64,000 nt of DNA from Actinomycetota bacterium (GCA_039812585.1 JBDIAW010000001.1:15547-79546), one strand, 5' to 3'; numbered from the stretch's first letter, positions 7,925-47,124 are shown. Translations and numbers: made by a program. Notes: generated from the sequence alone by a model not told the origin.

Positions 7925-7970
7925 CCTTAAAAGCCACTGGCCTGCAGAGCAGGAGCTCCACAGGCCAGTG
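7925..7970 (-). terminator. Putative intrinsic terminator/attenuator hairpin downstream of rplI
   Basis: A 10-bp inverted repeat (cactggcctg ... caggccagtg) with a 16-nt loop is followed on the minus strand by a U-rich 'cuuuuaag'. It lies between the rplI stop and the dnaB promoter region. Confidence 0.4.
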
Positions 7971-17463: not shown

Positions 17464-19983
17464 CTACCCACCCCCAGCCTGTTGACCTGGTTTGGGCTTA
17501 GTACTGCTGGTCGTGGTAGTCGGCAGGGTGGGTAGTGAGGAGCTTGAAGTAGAGCTGGTGGGGGTGGTCGGCTCGGTGGTGGGATCCGTCGATGTGGGGG
17601 TGGTCGGCAAAGTGGGAAGGGTGGGTTCCCCGGTTGGCAACGTGGATGCTGTGGGGGTATTGGTGGCGTTAGGATCGCTGGGATCGGTGGGCTGTCCACT
17701 GGGCGGTGCTGGGGGGGCAGTGACCGGAGGAACGGTCAATCCATCTGTGGAGCGGGCAAACTCCACTTTAGGGATGAGGTTTTTGTTGAATACTTGCAAC
17801 ATGTAGTTATACCAAATCTTTCCCGGCAATCCCCCACCGTAAAAATTGGCATAACCTCCCACTCCATTGAGGGATCGCAAGGTTGCATTACCTTGTGCAT
17901 CAACGCTCTCTCCATAGAAATTCACTGCCGTTGCTATCTTGGGAGTAACCCCCACATACCAAGCACTCTTATTATCTTGGGCAGTGCCGGTTTTCGCCGC
18001 TATCTGCAAGGTGCCTGGATCGTTTAAGGAGGCAGCTACTCTGCCAGTGGCGTACGGTTGGGTGGCTACCCGGTTCATGACGAACAGAACATCGGCGCAA
18101 AGATTACCTGCGTTCTCTTTACTGAGATCGCTAAATACTGGCTTTGCCGAGTCAGGTCCACGGTAAACCACCGTTCCATTGGGGGTTTGCGCCTCGCGGA
18201 TGAGATGGGGCTTGGCGCGTTGGCAACCCGCAGCAATAGAGGCATAAGCATTGGCCAAATCTATAGGCCGCACGGCTGCCGACCCTAAAGTCATGGTAGC
18301 TTCGGCGTTGAGCCCTCTGGCCAGATTTCGGGTAATACCAAGGTCTTCTATCGTTTTTCTAATTTGATCGAATCCAACGTGCTGAGCGATATCGACATAG
18401 GCAGTGTTAATCGAGCGTTCAGTCGCCTCGACGATATCCACGATTCCATATTTACTTGCTGGCCCATCGGTGGCATTGTTTACAGTACGCTCGGGATCTT
18501 TAGGATTGCCTGTTTTAATGGTCAACGGTGCATTGCCATTCCATCTCTTATCCCAGACGTTGTATTGCTTATCTTTCAATCCGGTCAGCATGGTAAAAGG
18601 TTTGAAAGTCGACCCCGCCTGGAGATGACCATCCATAGCCGAGTTGAATTGCACCTGCTTGTAATCAGAGCCCCCATACATGGCCAATACAGCCCCGCTG
18701 CCGGGCTGTATGGAAACCAATGAGGCGTGAACCTTGGGGTCCTTTTTTTGAATGGGCTCATAGAGATTTTCCATGGCTCGATTGGCTTCTTCTTGTAACT
18801 TCTTATCGAAGGTGGTGTAGATCCTCAGACCCCCACCATCAATGAGCTGTTCAGATACTCCACTATCAGCCAGCTCCTTACGTATAGCAGCATATAAGTA
18901 CCCATTAGGTCCACTAAAGTCTTGCATGGTAGAGCGATACGGCTCAAACTTCGGTAGTTTTTGCTTCGCGCGATCAGCAGGAGTGAGCCATCCATGCTCC
19001 ACCATCTTATTCAGAACATCATTCCATGCGAACTCGGCGCGTACCATGCGCTCTTTATGAGCGATAGACGTTTCTCCTTCTTTAATATCTTGAGTGTAAA
19101 GACCTGGGGATCGAATCAGCACCGCCAGATAAGCTCCTTGAGCCACAGTTAATTTACTGGCTGGGCATTTGAAATAAGCCTGAGCAGCTGCTTCGATACC
19201 CCATGTGCCTCTCCCCCAGTAGATAGCATTAAGATATCGCTCGAGAATTTGCTCTTTTTTGAGCTTACGGTTCACTTTCAATGCTAACAAAAACTCTTTA
19301 GACTTTCTTTTCAATGTTTGCTCAGACCCCACATAGACGTTTTTAACGTATTGTTGAGTGATGGTAGAACCACCCTGCTGATCCCCGCCTCGAAGGTTAT
19401 TGATCACAGCTCGGGTTATTCCTCGAGGGGACACTCCGCTATTGTCCCAGAACGTAGTATCTTCTGCAGCAATGACTGCGTTTTGTACATGCTTGGGAAC
19501 CTGATCAAGGGTAATACTGAAGCGGGTTTTAGTTCCCAAAATACCCATTTCCGAGTTATCGCCCCAAAAAACTTTGGTCGCCTGTGCTTCAGAATCTTGA
19601 TCAGGCTTAGGCAAGGGAGTGCGCGCGTAAGCGACGGCAAAAGCAACGACCCCAAAAATAATCAAAGCGCTAACAGCCAACGTGCCGTATTTAACGAAAA
19701 GACGTAAAACATCTTTCCAGGTCTTGTGGGGACGACCTGGGCGTCGAGCCGAAGTACCTGATGCAACTCGGGCCCCATAGACCGTCCCCGGGCCACTCCC
19801 GGTAGAAACGCCGGGACGCGGGGGGGGAGTTGGGGTGACGGGTCGACCCATGCCCCCGGGGCGTGCCGGTGCGCCACTGCCAGGAAGAGAGGGCCACTGA
19901 GGTTGCCTGGCGCCGCCATCACCCCCCGAACCTCCCGCACCGGGGGGAGGGCCTGGTGTTCCCATCGAGTTATCCACGCACAA
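17464..19983 (-). CDS. ponA: Class A penicillin-binding protein (transglycosylase + transpeptidase) with a Pro/Thr-rich C-terminal tail
   Basis: GT51 motifs 'EDTTFWDNSGV' and 'RGGSTITQQYVKN' are present, with the transpeptidase 'STFKPF' (SxxK), 'SIN' and 'KTGT' motifs. The last ~100 aa are a P/T/S-rich low-complexity region. Confidence 0.9.
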   Translation of the reverse strand: MCVDNSMGTPGPPPGAGGSGGDGGARQPQWPSLPGSGAPARPGGMGRPVTPTPPPRPGVSTGSGPGTVYGARVASGTSARRPGRPHKTWKDVLRLFVKYGTLAVSALIIFGVVAFAVAYARTPLPKPDQDSEAQATKVFWGDNSEMGILGTKTRFSITLDQVPKHVQNAVIAAEDTTFWDNSGVSPRGITRAVINNLRGGDQQGGSTITQQYVKNVYVGSEQTLKRKSKEFLLALKVNRKLKKEQILERYLNAIYWGRGTWGIEAAAQAYFKCPASKLTVAQGAYLAVLIRSPGLYTQDIKEGETSIAHKERMVRAEFAWNDVLNKMVEHGWLTPADRAKQKLPKFEPYRSTMQDFSGPNGYLYAAIRKELADSGVSEQLIDGGGLRIYTTFDKKLQEEANRAMENLYEPIQKKDPKVHASLVSIQPGSGAVLAMYGGSDYKQVQFNSAMDGHLQAGSTFKPFTMLTGLKDKQYNVWDKRWNGNAPLTIKTGNPKDPERTVNNATDGPASKYGIVDIVEATERSINTAYVDIAQHVGFDQIRKTIEDLGITRNLARGLNAEATMTLGSAAVRPIDLANAYASIAAGCQRAKPHLIREAQTPNGTVVYRGPDSAKPVFSDLSKENAGNLCADVLFVMNRVATQPYATGRVAASLNDPGTLQIAAKTGTAQDNKSAWYVGVTPKIATAVNFYGESVDAQGNATLRSLNGVGGYANFYGGGLPGKIWYNYMLQVFNKNLIPKVEFARSTDGLTVPPVTAPPAPPSGQPTDPSDPNATNTPTASTLPTGEPTLPTLPTTPTSTDPTTEPTTPTSSTSSSSLPTLPTTTTSSTKPKPGQQAGGG

Positions 19984-22070: not shown

Positions 22071-22162
22071 CCACCGACTGCCCTGGTAAAAAGTCTGGGG
22101 GAATACCGCCGAACGGTATTCCCCCAGACTTTTTCATTGAACTACTCAGCGTGGGGCGGGCC

Positions 22163-22498
22163 CTATTCCATCACGTGGTCGTCCACTTTGAAGTCCAAGT
22201 GAGTGGTTCCGTCTGTCACCGAACTCACTGTCGCTGTCATACCCAGCTTGACTTCAGATTCCCCTGGCTCCACCCTGGGATAAATCACGCAGCGTAGCGA
22301 GGCTCCGACTTTGGCATCGATTCCCTCAGGGCAATCGACCCTGTCTAGAGGTTTGCCGACCTGTGCTTCTAGCGCGGATTTGGCTTTTTCTTCCACGGTT
22401 TTTTCCGAAAGACCTCTATTGGCATCTACGGAAACCGAACAGCCACTCAGCAGCGCTATCGCGCATAGCGCCCCAGCAGCAACAACTTTTGAACTCAC
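22163..22498 (-). CDS. Small lipoprotein (DUF4333-like)
   Basis: A signal peptide with lipobox 'LLSGCSV' precedes a ~90-aa mature domain. Confidence 0.5.
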   Translation of the reverse strand: MSSKVVAAGALCAIALLSGCSVSVDANRGLSEKTVEEKAKSALEAQVGKPLDRVDCPEGIDAKVGASLRCVIYPRVEPGESEVKLGMTATVSSVTDGTTHLDFKVDDHVME

Positions 22499-22648
22499 AG
22501 GTTGCCCCTTTCGTCAAATGTGATCCACAGGGGCCAGTGTGACGCTGTAGGGTGAAACTCGGTTGTCTTTGCAGGAAAACCACCATTAGGCCTAACAAGT
22601 CCCCAGTGGGTTGCCTCGTCGCCCTTCCTGCTGATCGGGACGTACAGT

Positions 22649-23243
22649 TTGCCTGTGGATTACCGGGTGGTGTTGGGTGCGCTGGCAACTGCTGTGGCTG
22701 TCATCGGCTACCTCCCGTATTGGCGCAACATGGCGCTGGGGCCGCACCAAGCCTCATGTTTTCAGCTGGTTAGTGTGGGCTGTTCTCACGACCGTGGCGT
22801 GTGCTGGGCAGATCACCGAGGGGGGTGGTCCTGGTGCATGGGTCACCGGTTTCACCGCTCTGGTGAGTTATGGCATTTTTTTCTTTGCATTGTTTCGTGG
22901 CGAAAAGAACATTACGGTGACCGATTGGCTGTGTTTACTTGGCGCAGCTGGGTCAATGGTGGCATGGTGGGCTACTCATGGCCCCTTACTAGCTGTCATT
23001 CTTATTACTATTATCGACGCGCTTGGGTTTGCTCCAACATTTCGGAAATCTTTTTACTCTCCTGACGAAGAAACGGCTTTAACTTATGCCCTCAGTGCGT
23101 TGAAGTTTATTCTGGCCATTATAGCCTTGCGGAACTTTACCGTTGTGACATGGCTTTATCCCGCATCTTTAGTAGTGATGAACGCTGGGTTCGTGGGAAT
23201 GGTTATGCTTAGGCGACGACAACTCCAAGGACACTCACCATGA
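22649..23243 (+). pseudogene. Small polytopic membrane protein, apparently frameshifted (frames starting at 22649 and 22677 join near 22740)
   Basis: Frame A gives a TM-like 'MPVDYRVVLGALATAVAVIGYLPYW' then nonsense. Frame B gives nonsense then four TM-like segments. A +1 shift at a G4 run near 22746 would yield one ~200-aa membrane protein. The 3' half is low-GC. Confidence 0.35.
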
Positions 23244-23480
23244 AACCTTTGCACCTGCCCTACTCGGTTGTTCTCATTGCCTGAGATGGCACACTCACCG
23301 ATACTCTTCCGGTATGGATCGAAGGCATCCAATCAACCTTGGCTCGATTGGGTGTATCCGCTAGTCAGCAACACATAGCTGGTCAATTTGGAAACATTGT
23401 CGGAGAAATAAACCTTGGCCTACCCAAAGAAGCCTTTCCTGCCTACCGCGACGCGCTCATGATTGGCGACACGGACAAGG
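23240..23480 (+). pseudogene. HAD-superfamily hydrolase remnant (motif I fused to motif IV, in-frame stop, internal deletion)
   Basis: It translates as 'MKPLHLPYSVVLIA*DGTLTDTLPVWIEGIQSTLARLGVS...AYRDALMIGDTDKA', which parallels the N-terminus and C-terminus of the intact HAD gene at 23576 ('LPYRAALIDWDGTLAQTLQAW...', 'AVMIGDSDKD'). A TGA replaces the first Asp of DxDGTL and the central ~100 residues are missing. GC is ~48%. Confidence 0.5.
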
Positions 23481-23484
23481 CGTC

Positions 23485-23559
23485 AGGTTTTGGGTTGATG
23501 TTTGTGCGGTTTTAGCGCGCGCAAGCGCCGCTAAAACCGCACAAACATCAACCCAAAAC
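23485..23559. repeat. Perfect 32-bp inverted repeat (hairpin) with 11-nt loop
   Basis: ggttttgggttgatgtttgtgcggttttagcg (23485-23516) is the exact reverse complement of 23528-23559. It is AT-rich for this genome and lies between the HAD pseudogene and the intact HAD gene. Confidence 0.85.
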
Positions 23560-23575
23560 CGGTGGAGGGTCAGAG

Positions 23576-24283
23576 GTGGCAGAATGGGGGGGCATGACCC
23601 TGACTGCGCCCGCCCAGGCCGACCCGCTGGAGTTGCCTTACCGGGCTGCGTTAATCGACTGGGACGGGACGTTGGCGCAGACCCTGCAGGCGTGGATGCG
23701 CTGCTACCTGCAGGCCTGCCAAGAGTGGGGCTGCCCGGCCACTCCCGAGCAGGTGGCCGCTCAGTTCGGCAGCTGGCAAGGGGTGCTGGACCTCGGGGTG
23801 GCACAGGAGTCATTCCAGGCGTACTGGGACCGGATGGACGTCCTCTTAGCACATCACCTCCCTAGCGTGGATCTCTACCCGCACGCCGTGGCTACCTTGC
23901 AGGCAGTACGCAATGCGGGGGTCTCCACGGCTCTGGTCACCACCGGGCGGCGGGCGGTATGGGGACCCAGCTTCACCAAACATGCGTTGGAGCCTCTGTT
24001 CGATGTCGTGGTCAGCGGCGATGAGGTGACTCAGCACAAACCTCACCCCGAGCCACTGTTGCTAGCGCTGCAGCGACTGGGCATCCCCGACCCTGGCCAG
24101 GCGGTGATGATCGGAGACAGCGATAAGGACCTGGGTGCGGCCAACGCCGCAGGGATGGATTCGGTGCTGTTCTATCCACCCGATCACCAGCAGTTCTACA
24201 ACAAGCCAATATTGCTTGAGCAGTACCAGCCGCGCCATCAGTGCGCCAGCTGGCGCGGTATCGGCACCGTCCTGCTGCCCTAA
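23576..24283 (+). CDS. HAD-superfamily hydrolase (phosphoglycolate phosphatase-like, subfamily IA)
   Basis: Motif I 'LIDWDGTL', 'VTTGRR' and motif IV 'MIGDSDKDLGAANAAG' are present in a high-GC gene. Confidence 0.75.
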   Translation: MAEWGGMTLTAPAQADPLELPYRAALIDWDGTLAQTLQAWMRCYLQACQEWGCPATPEQVAAQFGSWQGVLDLGVAQESFQAYWDRMDVLLAHHLPSVDLYPHAVATLQAVRNAGVSTALVTTGRRAVWGPSFTKHALEPLFDVVVSGDEVTQHKPHPEPLLLALQRLGIPDPGQAVMIGDSDKDLGAANAAGMDSVLFYPPDHQQFYNKPILLEQYQPRHQCASWRGIGTVLLP

Positions 24284-29866: not shown

Positions 29867-31372
29867 CTAACGCTGTTGCCCCTCCCACCACTGGCGCAGC
29901 GCCGCTTCGGCCTGCTCGGGGGTCATGGGGCCGTGGTCCAGGCGCAGCTCCAACAGGTATTTATAGGCTTGGCCTACGGCAGGGCCGGGTGGTAAGCCCA
30001 AGATCGTCATGATCTGATTGCCGTCGAGGTCGGGGCGCACCGCGGCCATCTCCTCTTGTTGCTCCAACTGCGCGATGCGGAGCTCCAGGCTGTCGTAGGT
30101 GCGTTGCAGAGCCTCCGCTTTACGCCGGTTACGGGTGGTGCAGTCGGCGCGGGTCAAGATGTGCAGCCGCTCCAGCAGAGGCCCAGCATCGCGCACGTAG
30201 CGGCGTACCGCCGAGTCGGTCCACTCCCCCCCGCCGTAGCCGTGGAAGCGCAGGTGCAACTCCACCAGCGTGGCCACCTCCTCTACCACCTCGTTGGGGT
30301 AGCGCAACCCCCGCAGACGCTTGCGCGCCAGCTTGGCCCCCACCACATCGTGGTGGTGGAAGGAGACCCCACCGCCAGGTTCGAAGCGGCGTGTACGGGG
30401 CTTGCCAATGTCGTGCAGCAGCGCAGCTAGGCGGAGCACCAGGTCCGGCTCCGGCTCGCGCGCTGCCTCCCGCTGGGCCTGCGTAGCGTCTGGCGGGAGC
30501 TGCGGGAAGGCGCCCGGCAGGCGGTGCTCCATGGCGATGGCCTGCTCGAGCACCGTGAGGGAGTGTTCGTAAACATCTTTATGACGGTGATGCTCGTCGA
30601 TCTCCAGACGCAGAGCGGGCAACTCGGGCAGCACCAACTCGGCCAGCCCAGTCTCCACCAACAGCGTTAACCCCGGGCGAGGATCACGCGCCAGCAGGAG
30701 TTTGCTCAGCTCATCGCGGATCCGTTCCGCCGAGACGATCTGCAGGCGTTGGCTCATGTCCCGCATCGCCTGCAGCACCTCGTCGGCGACGGCGAAACCC
30801 AGTTGTGAGGCGAAGCGAGCCGCGCGCAGCATCCGCAGCGGGTCGTCACCGAAGGACTGCTGTGGCGTTCCGGGGGTGCGCAGGATGTGCCCGGCCAGGT
30901 CGGCCATACCGGTGCCAGGGTCGACAAACTCCAAGCTGGGCAGACGCAACGCCAAGGCGTTGATCGTGAAGTCGCGCCGGGCCAGATCTCCCGCCAGGGT
31001 GTGACCATAGCTGACCTGAGGTTTGCGACTGGCAGCGTCGTAGCTCTCCGCGCGGTACGTGGTGATCTCCACGGTCAGGCCATGTTTCTGCGCCCCGATC
31101 GTGCCAAAATCGCGCCCGATCTCCCACACCGCATCCGCCCAGGGCCCGACCAGGGGCAACACCTGCTCGGGTGTGGCGTTGGTGGTGAAGTCCAGGTCAT
31201 GGCTGGGCCGCCCCAGCAACGCATCGCGCACCGTGCCCCCCACCAGAGCCAGTTCGTAGCCTGCCTGGGCGAACATGTGCCCTAACTCCACCGCTGGCCC
31301 AGCCACCGGCGCCAGGTTGGCCACCGCTTGTCTTTGCAGCTGGGATAGTGACGTGGAGGGCGTGGAGGTCAT
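29867..31372 (-). CDS. cca: CCA-adding tRNA nucleotidyltransferase / poly(A) polymerase family with HD domain
   Basis: 'GGTVRDALLGRPSHDLDFTT' is the nucleotidyltransferase GGxVRD...DxD motif, and 'LLHDIGKP' is the HD domain. Its position next to a NUDIX gene and murJ matches the mycobacterial pcnA-mutT4-Rv3909-mviN arrangement. Confidence 0.85.
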   Translation of the reverse strand: MTSTPSTSLSQLQRQAVANLAPVAGPAVELGHMFAQAGYELALVGGTVRDALLGRPSHDLDFTTNATPEQVLPLVGPWADAVWEIGRDFGTIGAQKHGLTVEITTYRAESYDAASRKPQVSYGHTLAGDLARRDFTINALALRLPSLEFVDPGTGMADLAGHILRTPGTPQQSFGDDPLRMLRAARFASQLGFAVADEVLQAMRDMSQRLQIVSAERIRDELSKLLLARDPRPGLTLLVETGLAELVLPELPALRLEIDEHHRHKDVYEHSLTVLEQAIAMEHRLPGAFPQLPPDATQAQREAAREPEPDLVLRLAALLHDIGKPRTRRFEPGGGVSFHHHDVVGAKLARKRLRGLRYPNEVVEEVATLVELHLRFHGYGGGEWTDSAVRRYVRDAGPLLERLHILTRADCTTRNRRKAEALQRTYDSLELRIAQLEQQEEMAAVRPDLDGNQIMTILGLPPGPAVGQAYKYLLELRLDHGPMTPEQAEAALRQWWEGQQR

Positions 31373-31604
31373 CCCCTGAGCTTATGAGGCATTGTCCTGC
31401 TGATTTTTGGTTCAAGAGGCACTCCCCAGCACCCTTCGACTCATGATCCACGAGGTTACTTCTGCAACCATTCCCCACCCCACGTATCCGGTGATCACCA
31501 GGGCAGGGCCATCGCACCTCAGTTGCTCATCGTTATGCCTCCGTGGCCGCCAGTGGTGGGTTTCATGGTGGCAGCAGGCAACCAGCCTGGCCATTCCTCA
31601 GCAG

Positions 31605-32060
31605 TAAGGAGACGTCATGCGTGGCTTCCGTCGTTACTAATCCACAACCATCTTCACGTAGGGCGGTCCTCTCACTCACCGAGGGACCGCCCTATGGCTT
31701 GAGCGGGTAGTTAACAGTCGCCGGCTCCACAAAGAGCAGCCACATTCGTGACAAATCCTCCATAGCTCCTTCACAAACAGTTACCACTCGCTACAAGGCG
31801 TTTCGGAATATCACCAAGTAGTGGGCGTGTCGCCAGACCAAGGTCTAACTTCCCTAGGCACACCGGCCCCGCTAACGGTTAGATGGAGGAGGCAGGCAAC
31901 CGCCTGACTTCCAGTACATCTCCCAAGGAGTGCATCATGCGTGGCATCAAGCTCCGTGGCATCAAGCTCCGCTAACCCCGACGCGTTTAACTCGTTCGGC
32001 TTAACAGTTTGGCTGGTCCCCTACCGATGAAGTAGGAGGCCAGCCAAACTGTTAAGGGGG
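31605..32060 (+). promoter_or_regulatory. Leader region of the GGDEF/EAL gene: two SD-preceded mini-ORFs (MRGFRRY*, 31617-31640; MRGIKLRGIKLR*, 31937-31975) plus strong hairpins (about 31659-31694 and 32001-32055)
   Basis: Both mini-ORFs begin ATGCGTGGC and sit 5-6 nt after AAGGAG. The second contains a 15-nt tandem repeat 'cgtggcatcaagctc' x2. A 16-bp perfect inverted repeat 'ttaacagtttggctgg...ccagccaaactgttaa' ends 11 nt before the GTG start of the downstream gene. Confidence 0.3.
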
Positions 32061-32066
32061 GTACAC

Positions 32067-34166
32067 GTGCGTCGTTCTACCCTCACAGCTTTTTGGACAA
32101 TCGTTGCCGCCGGTACGATATCTGGCATTTGGCATTTCGTTTCTGTAGATCTCAAGCAACATTACGATCCTCTGGTTGTCATATGTTTAACGTTAGTTCT
32201 CATACTCTCGGAGCTATTTCCAGTAGAACTTAAGCGTGGAAGCAAAAAGGTCAGCGCACTTACGCTATCTAATGCGTTTATCGTCGTGCTTATTATTATG
32301 GGGCCGATTTGGCTATGCGCTTTCGCACAATTAATTTCCGAGATGATCAACCAAGTTAAAGAGAAATACAGACTAACAGCTAGCTTGTACAACGTTGCCC
32401 ATGTAATACTGGCGGCCGTCATCGCTTCGAATTGTTACCGGTGGGGTGAGGAAAACATTGTCCAGCTTCAAGGTGGAAATGTTTCCTGGGCGTTAATCTG
32501 GCTTATGCTTGTGGGCACATTCTACACAGCGTTTAGTTCAATGCTTTCAATTGTAGTAGGTGTGCTGGACTCCAAGATGAACTTAAAGGGTAGTTTTATT
32601 ATGGCGAAACAAGCCTACGGATACAGTCAGGCTATTGAAATATTGCTGATCCCGATAATTGTTGCCCTTGTAAATTACTGGCCTCCTACTTTGGTTTTCG
32701 TAGTTGTACCTTTGGCATTTGCGTCGCGGTATAATAAACTTTCAGCACAATTGACCACTTCCTCCATGCATGACCAAACCACTGGACTTCCTAATCGCCA
32801 TACGGTCGAAGAACAGTTTCATGAGACTGTTCAAAGTGGTACTCAAAGGTTAGCTGTTATTGTCGTGCAAATTGACAACTTGGGAGATATGACCCGAGCA
32901 ATGGGGCACCAAGCGGGAGATCAATTAATGTGCGATATTGCTGCTCGCTTGAATTCGGTGACGCGGCAAGGCACGGACATTGTCGGGCGCCTAGGGAGCA
33001 GCCGATTTGTCGTTTTAGCCCCTTTAGAAGAAGGGGTGGAAAATCCTCCAGATGTGAAATCAATTGGCGATCGTCTGTTGACCTCCCTGCGGGATGACTT
33101 TCGCTTGCAAGGGGTGCGCGTCAGTGTGTTGGCGACCGCCGGTGCCAGCCTCTACCCTGACCACGGCCAAACTGCAAGAGAACTGCTCCCCAAGGCGGAG
33201 GCAGCCATTCTCGACGCACCCCGCGGCCAGACCAGCCTGCACGACCCAGCCAACGAGATTTCCTCTCCCGAACGCCTGTCGGTGCTGGGGCAGCTACGCC
33301 ACGCCATCGACAACGGGCAGCTGGAGGTGCACTACCAACCCAAAGTCGACGCCAGCACTGAGATCGTGATGGGGGCAGAGGCCTTGGTGCGCTGGAGGCA
33401 CCCCGAACGCGGCTTGATTCCACCCATGGACTTCATCCCACTGGCGGAAAGTACCGGGCTGGTCAACCCCATGACCTGGGTAGTACTCGATCATGCATTA
33501 TCGCAGGTGAAACGGTGGACCAACCACCATTGGGGTCTGAAGGTGTCGGTGAACTTCGCCGCCGACTTGCTGATTGACAGCGAAACTCCTGCTCTGGTGG
33601 CCCGGGCGCTGCAACACAACCAGGTCAGCGCAGACCTGCTCATCATCGAGGTGACTGAATCCAGCTTGATCAAAGACGCCGCCCTAGCTATGCAGACGAT
33701 CACTGCCATCCGCCACCTGGGGGTGCAGGTGAGCGTCGATGACTACGGAACGGGGTACTCCTCGCTGGCTTACCTGCAAAAACTGGATGCCGACGAGCTC
33801 AAAATTGACCGGGCGTTCGTGAAAAACCTTGGTGCGCCTGACAACCAGCATGATCTGGCCATCGTGGAGACCACCGTCGCGTTGGGTCACCGGTTAGGAA
33901 TGGCCATTGTGGCCGAGGGGGTGGAAACTGCAGTGGAGCGCCAAATCCTGGAGGATGCTGGCTGCGACATGATTCAGGGCTTCTTCTACAGCAAACCGCT
34001 CCCGGGACCTGAGTTAACCGCGTGGTTAGCTCAGCGCCAGGTGCGGCCCCATCTGCCCAGTACCCTGCCCACTGCGCACCAACTCCACCAGATGATCCCC
34101 CAGCAAAATATTGGGCAACATACGGGCGAATGTGAGTCCGCCCCGCTGGGTTTCACGCTGGAATAG
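32067..34166 (+). CDS. Membrane-bound c-di-GMP phosphodiesterase: N-terminal polytopic sensor domain, degenerate GGDEF, active EAL
   Basis: About 8 TM helices occupy the first 230 aa. The GGDEF position reads 'RLGSSRF' (degenerate). The EAL domain has 'GAEALVRWRHP', 'LIIEVTES', 'DDYGTGYSSLAYL' and 'KIDRAFV'. Confidence 0.8.
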   Translation: MRRSTLTAFWTIVAAGTISGIWHFVSVDLKQHYDPLVVICLTLVLILSELFPVELKRGSKKVSALTLSNAFIVVLIIMGPIWLCAFAQLISEMINQVKEKYRLTASLYNVAHVILAAVIASNCYRWGEENIVQLQGGNVSWALIWLMLVGTFYTAFSSMLSIVVGVLDSKMNLKGSFIMAKQAYGYSQAIEILLIPIIVALVNYWPPTLVFVVVPLAFASRYNKLSAQLTTSSMHDQTTGLPNRHTVEEQFHETVQSGTQRLAVIVVQIDNLGDMTRAMGHQAGDQLMCDIAARLNSVTRQGTDIVGRLGSSRFVVLAPLEEGVENPPDVKSIGDRLLTSLRDDFRLQGVRVSVLATAGASLYPDHGQTARELLPKAEAAILDAPRGQTSLHDPANEISSPERLSVLGQLRHAIDNGQLEVHYQPKVDASTEIVMGAEALVRWRHPERGLIPPMDFIPLAESTGLVNPMTWVVLDHALSQVKRWTNHHWGLKVSVNFAADLLIDSETPALVARALQHNQVSADLLIIEVTESSLIKDAALAMQTITAIRHLGVQVSVDDYGTGYSSLAYLQKLDADELKIDRAFVKNLGAPDNQHDLAIVETTVALGHRLGMAIVAEGVETAVERQILEDAGCDMIQGFFYSKPLPGPELTAWLAQRQVRPHLPSTLPTAHQLHQMIPQQNIGQHTGECESAPLGFTLE

Positions 34167-34256
34167 AACCATCTGAGGGTCATTGCAACCCAGGTGCGAC
34201 TCAGCCAGACCGCCAGTAACCGACACTCCCGTGACGTGACGATTAGTCTTGGGTCA

Positions 34257-41608: not shown

Positions 41609-41620
41609 GGAATGCCTGCC

Positions 41621-41634
41621 GTTTCACGTGAAAC
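41621..41634. promoter_or_regulatory. parS site 1 (GTTTCACGTGAAAC), overlapping the stop codon and last 3 codons of ddl
   Basis: An exact 14-bp actinobacterial parS consensus, extended to the 18-bp palindrome ccGTTTCACGTGAAACgg. The ddl C-terminal residues RFT* are encoded by it. Confidence 0.8.
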
Positions 41635-42595
41635 GGGCCCCATTAGTGCGCTGGTAAGCGTGTTCGACCAGCGCGGAGCAGAAGTCAGTTAGGGTTCGGC
41701 CCGTAGCATGAACTGCTTGCGGAAGCAGGCTGTTAATGGTCATCCCCGGAGAAACATTGACCTCCAGAAACCAGTGTTGCCCTTGAGGGTCAACGATGAA
41801 GTCGGCGCGAGAATAATCACGTAAACCCAATGCTTGATGAATGCTTTCCGCTGCCTCGGTCAAAGCAGACAGAACGTCAGGGCCAACACCGGCTGGGATG
41901 ACAAATTGACTCTCCCCCACCGTGTATCTGGCCGTGTAGTCATAGCCTTGCTGGCCAGTTTTGATTTCTACGGCCGGTAAGCTACCCCAACCAGGAACTG
42001 CGTCGATAACTGTTAATGCCACCTCTGTCCCCACGATGAACTTCTCCAAGAGCACTGCAGAGTCATAGGCAAAAGCATGGACCAGAGCACTAGTGAGTTC
42101 ATCGGCCTGCTGAACCACACTCAACCCCAGCGAAGAACCCCCCCGGTTTGGCTTTACTACTAGCGGGAATCCTAAGGACTCCACCATGGGCGTTAAGAGG
42201 TGAGCTGCTCCTAACAATTTGATGGTATCTGTTGTGATAATAAAAGCGGGGGGGGTGATCAATCCTTGAGCCTGAGCAATACTCTTGGCAGCGAACTTAT
42301 CAAAAGCTAGATGGGCGGCACCCGCAGTGCTACCCACATAGGCCAATCCCAGTGCTTCGCATAAGGTTTGGATGGCTCCATCTTCCCCCAAGCTCCCATG
42401 CAACATTGAAAAGGCAAGATTGGTTTCGAGTTCTCGGAGTTTGGGTACCAAGGAAGTATCGATATCACAGACACTCACTGTGTAACCAGCGCTTCCTAAG
42501 GCCTCGGCAACTTGGAGCCCAGATTGTAGGGAAATCTCCCGCTCGTGAGACAAACCACCAGCGAGTACTGCAATTTTTAGGTTGGAGGTGGTCAT
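41624..42595 (-). CDS. ddl: D-alanine--D-alanine ligase
   Basis: The N-terminus 'KIAVLAGGLSHEREISLQSG' and an ATP-grasp C-terminal region 'ADFIVDPQGQHWFLEVNVSPGMT' are present. Confidence 0.85.
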   Translation of the reverse strand: MTTSNLKIAVLAGGLSHEREISLQSGLQVAEALGSAGYTVSVCDIDTSLVPKLRELETNLAFSMLHGSLGEDGAIQTLCEALGLAYVGSTAGAAHLAFDKFAAKSIAQAQGLITPPAFIITTDTIKLLGAAHLLTPMVESLGFPLVVKPNRGGSSLGLSVVQQADELTSALVHAFAYDSAVLLEKFIVGTEVALTVIDAVPGWGSLPAVEIKTGQQGYDYTARYTVGESQFVIPAGVGPDVLSALTEAAESIHQALGLRDYSRADFIVDPQGQHWFLEVNVSPGMTINSLLPQAVHATGRTLTDFCSALVEHAYQRTNGARFT

Positions 42596-43914
42596 GGCAT
42601 GCTCACATTAGGGTTGTCGGACTGGCGCCATTGAGGTTTGCTTTGGGTAGGTCCAAGGATATGTCGAAGCTCTAATTCCTCATTGACCACACCAGCTAAC
42701 CTTCGCACTCCTTCGCGTAATTGATCCACTGGAGGGAAGCAGTAAGAGAGACGCAAACTGCTTTCACCCAACACTCGCCCTGCGCCGGAGTAGAAAGCGC
42801 TGCCCGGAACATAAGCAACCCTTGCATTCAATGCGCGAGGCAGCATTAATGCTGAATCGATCCCCATGGGAAGGTTAACCCACACATAAAACCCGCCCTG
42901 AGGAACTGTCCAGTGCACTCCTTCAGGCATGGCTGCCGTCAGGGTTTCAATCACCGCATCACGCCGCTCCCGATAAATATTGCGATACGAGGTGATCTGT
43001 TGCTGCCAATCAAACTCCTGTAAATAGGTGCAGACAACTGTCTGGGCCAAAGCCGAAGGACACAACATAGTCGCTTCGGCTGCCAAAATCAGCTTGTCCC
43101 TAATCACCCGAGGTGCCACGACCCATCCGACCCGAGTGCCAGGAGCAAAGGTTTTAGAAAATGATCCCAGATAGATGACGTCTTCGTTGATGGAGCGCAG
43201 AGCTGGCAAAGTTTGGTGATCAAATCCGAGCAAGCCATAAGGGTTGTCCTCAACTAATGGCACTTTAGACTGAGCGCAAAGGCTCACAATCCGCTGGCGA
43301 CGCTCCAATGTTTGAGTCACTCCGGCTGGATTGTGAAACGTGGGAATGGTGTAAACAAACTTGGGAGCTTTTCCTTGGGCTTGACATCCTGCAATAGCTG
43401 ACGACAGCGCCTCGGGATGCAGTCCTTGCTCATCCATGTCGACATGAACAACTTCTGCTTCGTATGATCTAAATGCTTGAAGGGCACCCACATACGATGG
43501 GGCTTCAGCGAGGATGACATCGCCCGGATTAATGAACACCCTCGTCAATAGATCCAAGGCCTGCTGGGACCCAGTTGTGACCACTACGTCATCTGGGTGT
43601 GCTGCTATACCCTCTACAGCCATCACGGAGACGATTTCTTCACGTAGCTGAGGGTCGCCTTGGGCCGATCCGTACTGCAAGGCATAGGTACCTCGGGTTT
43701 TAATCAGCTCGGCAATCTTGTTCCCGATCTCAGCGAGAGGGAGAGCAGAGACGTAGGGCATGCCGCCCGCTAAGGAAACAATTTCCGGCCGTGAAGCGAC
43801 GGCAAATAGGGCGCGGATCTCCGAGGCGGTCATACTTGCGGTTCGCTCAGCCAGTAGTGGGATGGTTTCACGTGAAACCATCCCACTACTGGGGTTCTCC
43901 CCCTCAACACTCAT
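42592..43914 (-). CDS. PLP-dependent aminotransferase, class I/II fold (2-aminoadipate/MocR-C-terminal-like, no HTH)
   Basis: 'TASEIRALFAV' near the N-terminus, the fold-type I core 'VVVTTGSQQALDL' and a PLP Lys region 'YLGSFSKTFAPGTRVGW' are present. The stop overlaps the ddl start (ATGA). The start is uncertain (43914 or 43881), and the 5' end contains a parS site. Confidence 0.7.
   Translation of the reverse strand: MSVEGENPSSGMVSRETIPLLAERTASMTASEIRALFAVASRPEIVSLAGGMPYVSALPLAEIGNKIAELIKTRGTYALQYGSAQGDPQLREEIVSVMAVEGIAAHPDDVVVTTGSQQALDLLTRVFINPGDVILAEAPSYVGALQAFRSYEAEVVHVDMDEQGLHPEALSSAIAGCQAQGKAPKFVYTIPTFHNPAGVTQTLERRQRIVSLCAQSKVPLVEDNPYGLLGFDHQTLPALRSINEDVIYLGSFSKTFAPGTRVGWVVAPRVIRDKLILAAEATMLCPSALAQTVVCTYLQEFDWQQQITSYRNIYRERRDAVIETLTAAMPEGVHWTVPQGGFYVWVNLPMGIDSALMLPRALNARVAYVPGSAFYSGAGRVLGESSLRLSYCFPPVDQLREGVRRLAGVVNEELELRHILGPTQSKPQWRQSDNPNVSMP
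43865..43878. promoter_or_regulatory. parS site 2 (GTTTCACGTGAAAC) inside the 5' end of the aminotransferase CDS
   Basis: An exact consensus within the 20-bp palindrome atGGTTTCACGTGAAACCat. It encodes 'MVSRET' in the ORF. Confidence 0.8.
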
Positions 43915-44045
43915 CGAGGCTCACCTTCATCTTCGCTTCGCAGCGCATCCCACCGAACGGTCGCCAGCCTACTCATCGACGAGCCGACACCCTCTTAGCA
44001 GTGCTTTTAGTACGGACGCTGCCTTTTTATCAAACAGGAGGGGGC

Positions 44046-44059
44046 GTTTCACGTGAAAC
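44046..44059. promoter_or_regulatory. parS site 3 (GTTTCACGTGAAAC), intergenic between parB and the aminotransferase
   Basis: An exact consensus within the 24-bp palindrome ggggcGTTTCACGTGAAACgcccc. Confidence 0.85.
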
Positions 44060-44086
44060 GCCCCCTCCTGTTTGATAAAAAGTGTC

Positions 44087-47073: not shown

Positions 47074-47107
47074 CGATGGTTCGGAGCTACCGAAGTAGGG
47101 ATAACGC

Positions 47108-47121
47108 GTTTCACGTGAAAC
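47108..47121. promoter_or_regulatory. parS site 4 (GTTTCACGTGAAAC), intergenic between jag and rsmG
   Basis: An exact consensus within the 18-bp palindrome gcGTTTCACGTGAAACgc. Confidence 0.85.
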
Positions 47122-47124
47122 GCT

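Follow-up and report, generated by a model that had tools for sequence, protein, structure and literature searches.

What role, if any, is played by the 694 bp that separate cca from a GGDEF/EAL gene near the replication origin of an uncultured high-GC actinobacterium? The window that we analysed (the whole 64-kb stretch of DNA) is origin-proximal and carries cca, NUDIX, DUF6049, MurJ, thioredoxin reductase and amidase genes, with a parS cluster and tRNA-Ile/Ala after the amidase in the gene order. The gap (31373–32066) lies between cca (29867–31372, − strand; PolyA_pol/HD domains, ATG at 31372) and the GGDEF/EAL ORF, and a preliminary description had singled it out as a low-GC leader in which mini-ORFs and strong hairpins resemble ribosome-stalling attenuation control. 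Its extent and composition are as described, with a GC content of 0.56–0.58 vs 0.63–0.69 in the flanks. A hidden or decayed protein-coding gene in the gap was considered and rejected, since its ORFs of 29–66 aa match nothing in Pfam or NCBIfam and GC3 shows a flat profile. Three independent assemblies agree over the locus at 100% identity; it is therefore real, but the assemblies provide no variation. The locus is present in the samples SRR10090775, SRR10090778 and SRR19427084.

The two mini-ORFs sit in paralogous modules

Two Shine-Dalgarno (SD)-led mini-ORFs encoding peptides that begin with MRG had been noted in the gap, and both are present on the + strand. Mini-ORF1 has the SD AAGGAG at 31606–31611, a 5-nt spacer, ATG at 31617 and TAA at 31638–31640, and encodes MRGFRRY. 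Mini-ORF2 (uORF2) has AAGGAG at 31925–31930, a 6-nt spacer, ATG at 31937 and TAA at 31973–31975, and encodes MRGIKLRGIKLR; the 15-nt tandem duplication reported within it (31940–31954/31955–31969) is perfect and in frame. This exceeds chance: none of 5000 dinucleotide shuffles contained AAGGAG-N4-8-ATG two or more times as the gap does, and on both strands of the 64-kb window the pattern occurs only four times, namely at two ordinary gene starts and at the two mini-ORFs.

Beyond the earlier description, what is new here is that alignment identifies the two mini-ORFs as parts of paralogous modules. Module 1 (31559–31640, + strand) consists of the box GGTTTCATGGTGGCAGCAGGCAACC, a bulged 10-bp stem-loop (31567–31595), the SD and mini-ORF1; module 2 (31877–31975, + strand) consists of the box GGTTAGATGGAGGAGGCAGGCAACC, a bulged 10-bp stem-loop (31888–31912; −16.3 kcal/mol, z −3.8), the SD and mini-ORF2. 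Common to both ~90-nt modules, which are ~319 bp apart, are ATG-CGT-GGC, AAGGAG, TAA and the 10-bp stem-loop. The alignment of module 1 (31559–31628) with module 2 (31877–31948) scores 21, as compared to 10.9 ± 1.4 in shuffles (maximum 16; 0/200). Removal of the 15-nt duplication reduces both ORFs to 7 codons plus TAA (MRGFRRY and MRGIKLR), and the modules can then be aligned over their full length (89 vs 91 nt). Identity between them is confined to blocks – the box GGTTnnATGGnGGnnGCAGGCAACC, GCCTG, AAGGAG (6/6), TCATGCGTGGC (11/11) and TAA – and in the spacers and codons 4–7 it is at the random level. The outer stem pairs are GGC/GCC in module 1 vs GGAGG/CUUCC in module 2, with the pairing retained. 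Such block-wise identity would be as expected for a pattern of constraint, not for a recent neutral copy. The start region of the main gene was considered as a third copy of the module and rejected, the similarity being not significant (p = 0.18 and 0.82).

Very stable hairpins follow both mini-ORFs

The two strong hairpins that had been reported are both present, the second being longer than first described. Hairpin 1 (31657–31696, either strand) begins 16 nt past the mini-ORF1 stop codon and has 13+3 bp, including the 11-bp GC-rich perfect core (31659–31669/31684–31694); its folding energy is −30.9 kcal/mol on the + strand (z −7.3) and −27.9 kcal/mol on the − strand. Hairpin 2 (32000–32056, either strand) has 25-nt arms (32000–32024/32032–32056) that are 92% complementary and a 7-nt loop, and the 16-bp palindrome at 32001–32055 is its outer part (perfect 16-nt arms 32001–32016/32040–32055); it folds with −40.9 kcal/mol on the + strand (z −6.8) and −41.1 kcal/mol on the − strand, and ends 10–11 nt before the GTG at 32067. 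A small hairpin of 7 bp (31978–31999, + strand) lies between the uORF2 stop codon and hairpin 2. The spacing from the mini-ORF stop codons to the strong hairpins is 16–24 nt and the sequences of hairpins 1 and 2 are unrelated; hairpins no more than 30 nt after both stop codons are expected with p ~0.005 under random placement, i.e. the architecture is non-random. The repeated unit is a 5′ stem-loop, an SD, a 7-codon cationic ORF (MRG-Φ-+-x-x), a 16–24 nt spacer and a very stable hairpin.

The hairpins had also been suggested as terminators. Hairpin 1 has no U tract on either side and hairpin 2 has none, the sequences that follow being UGGCUUGA and GGGGGGUA, unlike the real, canonical U-tract terminators found elsewhere in the window (22088–22134, 44023–44082 and 7935–7970), and no terminator-like site was found on the + strand of the gap.

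As the hairpins are equally stable on both strands, we dropped the attempt to deduce the strand of action from G-U pairs; the symmetry means that they need not act as RNA, and an RNA-level function is assumed below. The palindromes could instead be DNA-level elements: operators, attC-like recombination sites or ends of a miniature mobile element. Apart from the strand symmetry, this explanation can draw on the outer ends of hairpin 2 (GCTTAAC...GTTAAGG), which on inspection resemble the integron core sites RYYYAAC/GTTRRRY, and on AACAGT/ACTGTT, present four times in the gap. However, operators are not typically hairpins of 57 bp with 23 bp between the half-sites, hairpin 2 has no extrahelical bases, no second site lies downstream of the gene (where the gap to the next ORF is 27 nt), and there are no target-site duplications. 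Furthermore, no copies were found in the window, related loci, plasmids, phages or viral contigs, and a search for mobile-element copies of the hairpins in the 64-kb window, the first 92 loci and public collections was likewise negative. We judge the integron attC and operator readings unlikely on the grounds of the missing extrahelical bases, second site and copies, and the chances of DNA-level elements as a whole are very remote.

A candidate promoter lies between the modules

The minimal actinobacterial −10 motif is TANNNT. It occurs once on the + strand of the gap and twice on the − strand, vs 5.9 ± 2.2 in dinucleotide shuffles, and a + strand count as low as this was seen in 4 of 500 shuffles. 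The only + strand match, TAACTT at 31846–31851 (with the transcription start predicted at ~31857–31860), falls between the end of module 1 and the beginning of module 2. This candidate promoter is a hexamer match only, with a poor −35; the scan found no sigma-70 consensus promoter, and the TANNNT scan of the + strand gave no −10-like hexamer upstream of module 1. If the hexamer at 31846 is used, module 2 lies within the mRNA, in a leader of ~210 nt, and module 1 is untranscribed. Hairpin 2 must be part of the mRNA because there is no room for a promoter between it and the GTG.

On the − strand, the −10-like hexamer TAAGCT (31379–31384) lies 6 nt upstream of the cca ATG at 31372, which has no SD. 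A −10 hexamer just before the start codon is a known geometry of leaderless actinobacterial promoters, and we infer that the cca mRNA is leaderless, so that almost none of the gap would be needed by cca.

The + strand also carries two C-rich, G-poor tracts, one before module 1 (31399–31528; C/G up to 2.46, ~99th percentile of the window) and a second, rut-like one stretching from hairpin 1 to module 2 (31711–31814; C/G 2.36–2.45). After uORF2, C/G is only 1.4–1.6. Rho loading would be compatible with these tracts, but transcription from the predicted promoter would start downstream of the stronger one.

Could the modules rather be two independent tiny genes or sRNAs, i.e. transcription units of their own that end at, or are stabilised by, the hairpins and encode cationic peptides of 7–12 aa, with the GGDEF/EAL gene expressed by read-through only? 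A gene-like layout (5′ stem-loop, SD, ORF, 3′ hairpin) is indeed repeated, and no gene comes after hairpin 1. However, no −10-like hexamer precedes module 1, the U tract is absent, the peptides are far below the length of known functional small proteins, and neither the metagenome scans nor the profile search produced homologues, nor Rfam a match. We consider independent tiny genes decidedly improbable.

The GGDEF/EAL gene and its start

The GGDEF/EAL gene (32067–34166, + strand, GTG start, 699 aa) encodes a membrane-sensor protein with a degenerate GGDEF motif (RLGSSRF) and intact EAL motifs, and hence probably a c-di-GMP phosphodiesterase. One public gene call sets the start 77 codons later (622 aa). 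We accept the GTG at 32067, since in an alignment with nine homologues an invariant E49 and its surrounding motif are upstream of that later start, and there is no other in-frame start from 32067 to E49. GC3 is 0.44 in the first 300 codons (the membrane sensor part) and 0.71 in the remainder, native genes being at ~0.7, which suggests that the 5′ part of the gene is chimeric or recently recombined; hairpin 2 adjoins this 5′ part (42–49% GC) at a compositional boundary. When only the N-terminal 238 residues (32067–32780) served as query, a word-indexed protein search missed even the identical entry, and it is uninformative as to orphan status of the sensor domain.

The main translation initiation region (32053–32084, + strand) comprises the SD AAGGGGGG at 32053–32061 and the GTG at 32067. 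Both are predicted to pair with codons 4–6 (UACCCUC, 32078–32084), with P(unpaired) of the SD at 0.01; the local hairpin that masks the SD is not in itself significant (z −1.1).

The gene was inserted between cca and NUDIX

No homologue of the GGDEF/EAL protein above 37% identity was found among 5.8 billion proteins. In two more distant actinobacteria (L039 and L075) cca and NUDIX are divergent neighbours ~20–120 bp apart, and the 694 bp together with the GGDEF/EAL gene are therefore a lineage-specific insertion; in the reading that we prefer, the gene was acquired horizontally and recently. Synteny differs around the closest relative of cca (80% identity), which has a rearranged context (L084–L093): a zeta-toxin gene and DUF4913 before cca, then an FhaA/FhaB/PP2C/FtsW/PBP/PknB cluster, with flavodoxin-like and HAD genes after cca and origin surroundings that differ from those of the window.

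In the window, the longest NUDIX ORF starts at 34194, only 27 nt past the GGDEF/EAL stop codon (34166), and the gene call of another assembly starts it at ~34257. The insertion puts NUDIX-DUF6049-MurJ 2.8 kb from the cca-proximal region, which in relatives is a shared divergent promoter region. NUDIX-DUF6049-MurJ may now be co-transcribed with the inserted GGDEF/EAL gene and may depend on transcription through the gap region.

Upstream of distant homologues with the same domain layout, the spacers are 27–127 bp in five of six cases. The only long one (509 bp) belongs to the nearest homologue (L094, 37% identity). Here, at 700–880, an SD-led 29-codon hydrophobic ORF, MNAKLYVRAATVATTLSTLVYVVGAPHKW, precedes the GGDEF/EAL homologue; a canonical U-tract terminator with a 12-bp stem begins 24 nt after its stop codon and ends 17 nt before the start codon of the homologue, with no room for a promoter between the terminator and the start. 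The 29-codon peptide has no Pfam or NCBIfam match. The L094 spacer, with an ORF unrelated to the mini-ORFs, is an architectural parallel and not a homologue of the gap.

An insertion at this site brings up the main rival to any regulatory function, namely that the gap is non-functional debris of the acquisition and rearrangement of a foreign segment: a region that once served translation initiation would have been duplicated locally long ago to give the modules, and the palindromes would be rearrangement scars. The insertion itself speaks for this, as do the foreign composition of the first 900 nt of the gene (GC3 0.44) with hairpin 2 exactly at the boundary, the perfect 15-nt tandem duplication, which shows ongoing slippage, the lack of a promoter-like hexamer for module 1, and the failure to see conservation anywhere searched. 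A further argument is a second, longer palindrome that edges another low-GC block in the same window: a perfect 32-bp palindrome with an 11-nt loop (23486–23560) forms the right edge of a block of 44–57% GC (~22100–23500) with 15 nt between it and the GTG start of an intact HAD hydrolase gene (23576–24283). The reading frame of a 58-aa low-GC ORF runs on into the 5′ arm of the palindrome; this ORF is a decayed, internally deleted HAD fragment that matches two separate stretches of the intact gene in BLASTP (E-values of 3e-8 and 3e-4). In this region (23339–23576) the palindrome has the look of a scar left by inverted duplication where a rearrangement was joined, parallel to hairpin 2. Against debris stand the block-wise conservation, with SD, start and stop codons intact in both copies and the ORFs of equal length, and the independent sequences of the hairpins at matching post-stop positions (p ~0.005); neutral decay is unlikely to spare two perfect AAGGAG-ATG sites while saturating the spacers. 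On balance we regard the debris explanation as somewhat unlikely.

Searches for further copies

No similarity to the leader was detected by blastn in 90 loci and the rest of the 64-kb window, and no copy of the module in 22 related loci. Plasmids and phages were negative for leader and module copies or gave matches at chance level, and viral contigs yielded none or chance 16-mer matches. A first pattern scan of metagenomes (JGI) returned 0 matches; a looser second scan returned 44, all of them ordinary gene starts or internal sites without the box. A search with a module profile found no third copy; the best extra match (19884–19925, − strand; 11 bits, E ~0.03, box ATGGnGGCnnCAGGCAACC...TGGCC) lies inside the 5′ coding part of an 839-aa ORF (17464–19983) and is probably due to chance. 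That no riboswitch was recognisable agrees with our comparison to Rfam 15 (including c-di-GMP-I/II), in which nothing rose above miRNA-hairpin noise (15–23 bits vs gathering thresholds of 50–100); a known RNA family was rejected on this basis.

Classical attenuation fits the predicted folds poorly

Hairpins 1 and 2 are kept in the MFE and centroid structures of every folded construct with no competing helix, so there is no antiterminator alternative; the alternative structures contemplated in the preliminary description thus did not appear on folding, both hairpins being invariant. To mimic a ribosome, 31 nt were held open at uORF2 codon 6, codon 11 or the stop codon in the leader that starts at the predicted transcription start. 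In these constrained folds P(unpaired) of the main SD stays at 0.00–0.01 (99% paired). The SD of uORF2 is mostly paired in the predicted fold. The attenuation originally proposed is not supported by these results: the U tract and the antiterminator are missing, the only candidate −10 on the + strand lies between the modules and the predicted pairing of the SD is unaffected. In these models, classical attenuation fits poorly.

More broadly, read-through or the access of Rho might depend on a ribosome stalled on the Arg/Lys-rich leader peptides, in response to the supply of Arg-tRNA or, at the K-L-R of uORF2, to a ribosome-targeting drug, K-L-R being presumably a macrolide-type +x+ arrest motif. 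Two copies of K-L-R are present in uORF2 and none in uORF1, in which 3 of 7 residues are Arg. Stalling would account for short SD-led ORFs upstream of hairpins and for rut-like tracts in the leader, and can point to the L094 homologue with its small ORF and canonical terminator directly before the gene. Moreover, uORFs that sense translation stress via Rho are known, e.g. toiL/topAI (PMC12121999). What weighs against stalling is that the hairpins have no U tract, unlike the real terminators of this genome; that the hairpins of −31 and −41 kcal/mol persist in MFE and centroid with no competing antiterminator; that the uORF stop codons come 16–24 nt before the hairpins; that SD accessibility is unchanged by the ribosome constraints; that the strongest rut-like tract is upstream of the predicted promoter; and that the downstream gene is neither a resistance nor an amino-acid gene. 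Nor is CGT rare: it makes up 23% of Arg codons in native genes, where TTA is 7.5% of Leu codons, and rare-codon sensing is not indicated. We think stalling-based attenuation improbable.

The reading that we prefer, with a probability of about 0.4, is that of a uORF-containing 5′ leader that acts post-transcriptionally on an acquired c-di-GMP gene, module 1 being a probable relic. The gap would be the promoter and 5′-leader region of the horizontally acquired GGDEF(degenerate)/EAL gene. A promoter near 31846 would most likely drive module 2 and the gene as one transcript, on which uORF2 would be translated. Hairpin 2 would be a constitutive 5′ UTR structure adjoining the main SD, for which masking is predicted. 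Control would be post-transcriptional and linked to the uORF, affecting translation of the main ORF or mRNA stability and processing, and would not operate by terminator/antiterminator attenuation. Module 1, for which no promoter is recognisable, would probably be an inactive or decaying duplicate.

We infer the promoter, the translation of the uORF and any regulatory effect. We favour the 5′ leader because the paralogy of the modules is significant and their similarity falls in functional-looking blocks, because both ORFs reduce to 7 codons plus TAA, and because stem pairing is kept despite the change from GGC/GCC to GGAGG/CUUCC. Strong, unrelated hairpins after both stop codons (p ~0.005), the restriction of AAGGAG-N-ATG in the window otherwise to true gene starts, the ~210-nt leader that the lone TANNNT at 31846 would give, with module 2 and hairpin 2 in the mRNA, and the small SD-led ORF plus hairpin before the start in L094 argue in the same direction. 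Against it count the lack of orthologues in the databases, the identical assemblies, the short spacers of five of six distant homologues and the lack of a module copy in the other sequences searched; the main SD that in the models stays shut with a ribosome on uORF2, and the mostly paired SD of uORF2; and a promoter that is only a hexamer with a poor −35, together with strand-symmetric hairpins.

Relation to known leaders

Structurally, hairpin 2 invites comparison with 5′ UTR stabilisers and RNase III substrates, i.e. ompA-type 5′ stem-loops and long perfect leader duplexes. As in these, a near-perfect duplex of >20 bp lies directly upstream of the SD in the mRNA; unlike ompA-type hairpins, hairpin 2 is not at the predicted 5′ terminus.

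Regulatory uORFs that act by coupling or RBS occlusion are represented by a uRBS/uORF set in Sinorhizobium meliloti (PMC13285730) and are reviewed for bacteria in PMC11550727. The locus shares with them a short SD-led leader ORF and a structured stretch before a masked main RBS. It differs in that a ribosome on uORF2 leaves the main SD masked in silico, and in that the cassette is duplicated, each copy with an unusually stable hairpin (−31 to −41 kcal/mol).

The drug-sensing leader peptides of erm, cat and ABCF genes and of toiL-topAI (PMC12121999; PMC5499644) resemble the locus in that the leader ORF is very short (6–14 codons), has a strong SD and encodes basic residues (here the K-L-R of uORF2), and in that a hairpin precedes the gene. 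Here, however, the downstream gene is that of a c-di-GMP enzyme and not a resistance gene, and, in contrast to the ermC/cat type, the main SD is outside the hairpin that a stalled ribosome could open. Rho-dependent uORF leaders (tnaC, toiL) have a C-rich, G-poor, rut-like tract downstream of the uORF; here C/G is 2.4 at 31711–31814, after uORF1, and only 1.4–1.6 after uORF2. With amino-acid attenuators (the trp, his and ilvB leaders; e.g. the Corynebacterium ilvBNC uORF, PMC10272879) the locus has in common a peptide rich in one residue (Arg, 3/7 in uORF1) before a stem-loop and, as in trp/his, a leader ORF with its own ribosome-binding site, present twice here; it departs from them in that a U-tract terminator and a mutually exclusive antiterminator are both missing, the gene has no connection with arginine metabolism and conservation was not seen.

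Implications and other features of the window

If the leader is functional, it would be a case in which an uncultured actinobacterium controls c-di-GMP turnover post-transcriptionally through a uORF, and would illustrate the wiring of a new acquisition into a conserved gene cluster near the origin. If the gap is debris, it illustrates that regulatory architecture can be mimicked by duplications and palindromes that form where foreign DNA ends. A bolder version of the functional 5′ leader sees the cassette as a previously undescribed, duplicable translational-control unit that senses ribosome status (e.g. drug or stress arrest at K-L-R) and sets expression of the c-di-GMP phosphodiesterase and possibly of NUDIX-DUF6049-MurJ; this is a long shot. 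As this is a single unconserved locus, its general significance is limited.

Finally, four perfect GTTTCACGTGAAAC palindromes, which we take to match the parS consensus, are present in the window (41619–41636, 43851–43892, 44023–44082 and 47106–47123) and fit its origin-proximal location. One of these sites is found inside a perfect 60-nt palindrome with A/T tracts that resembles a bidirectional terminator.
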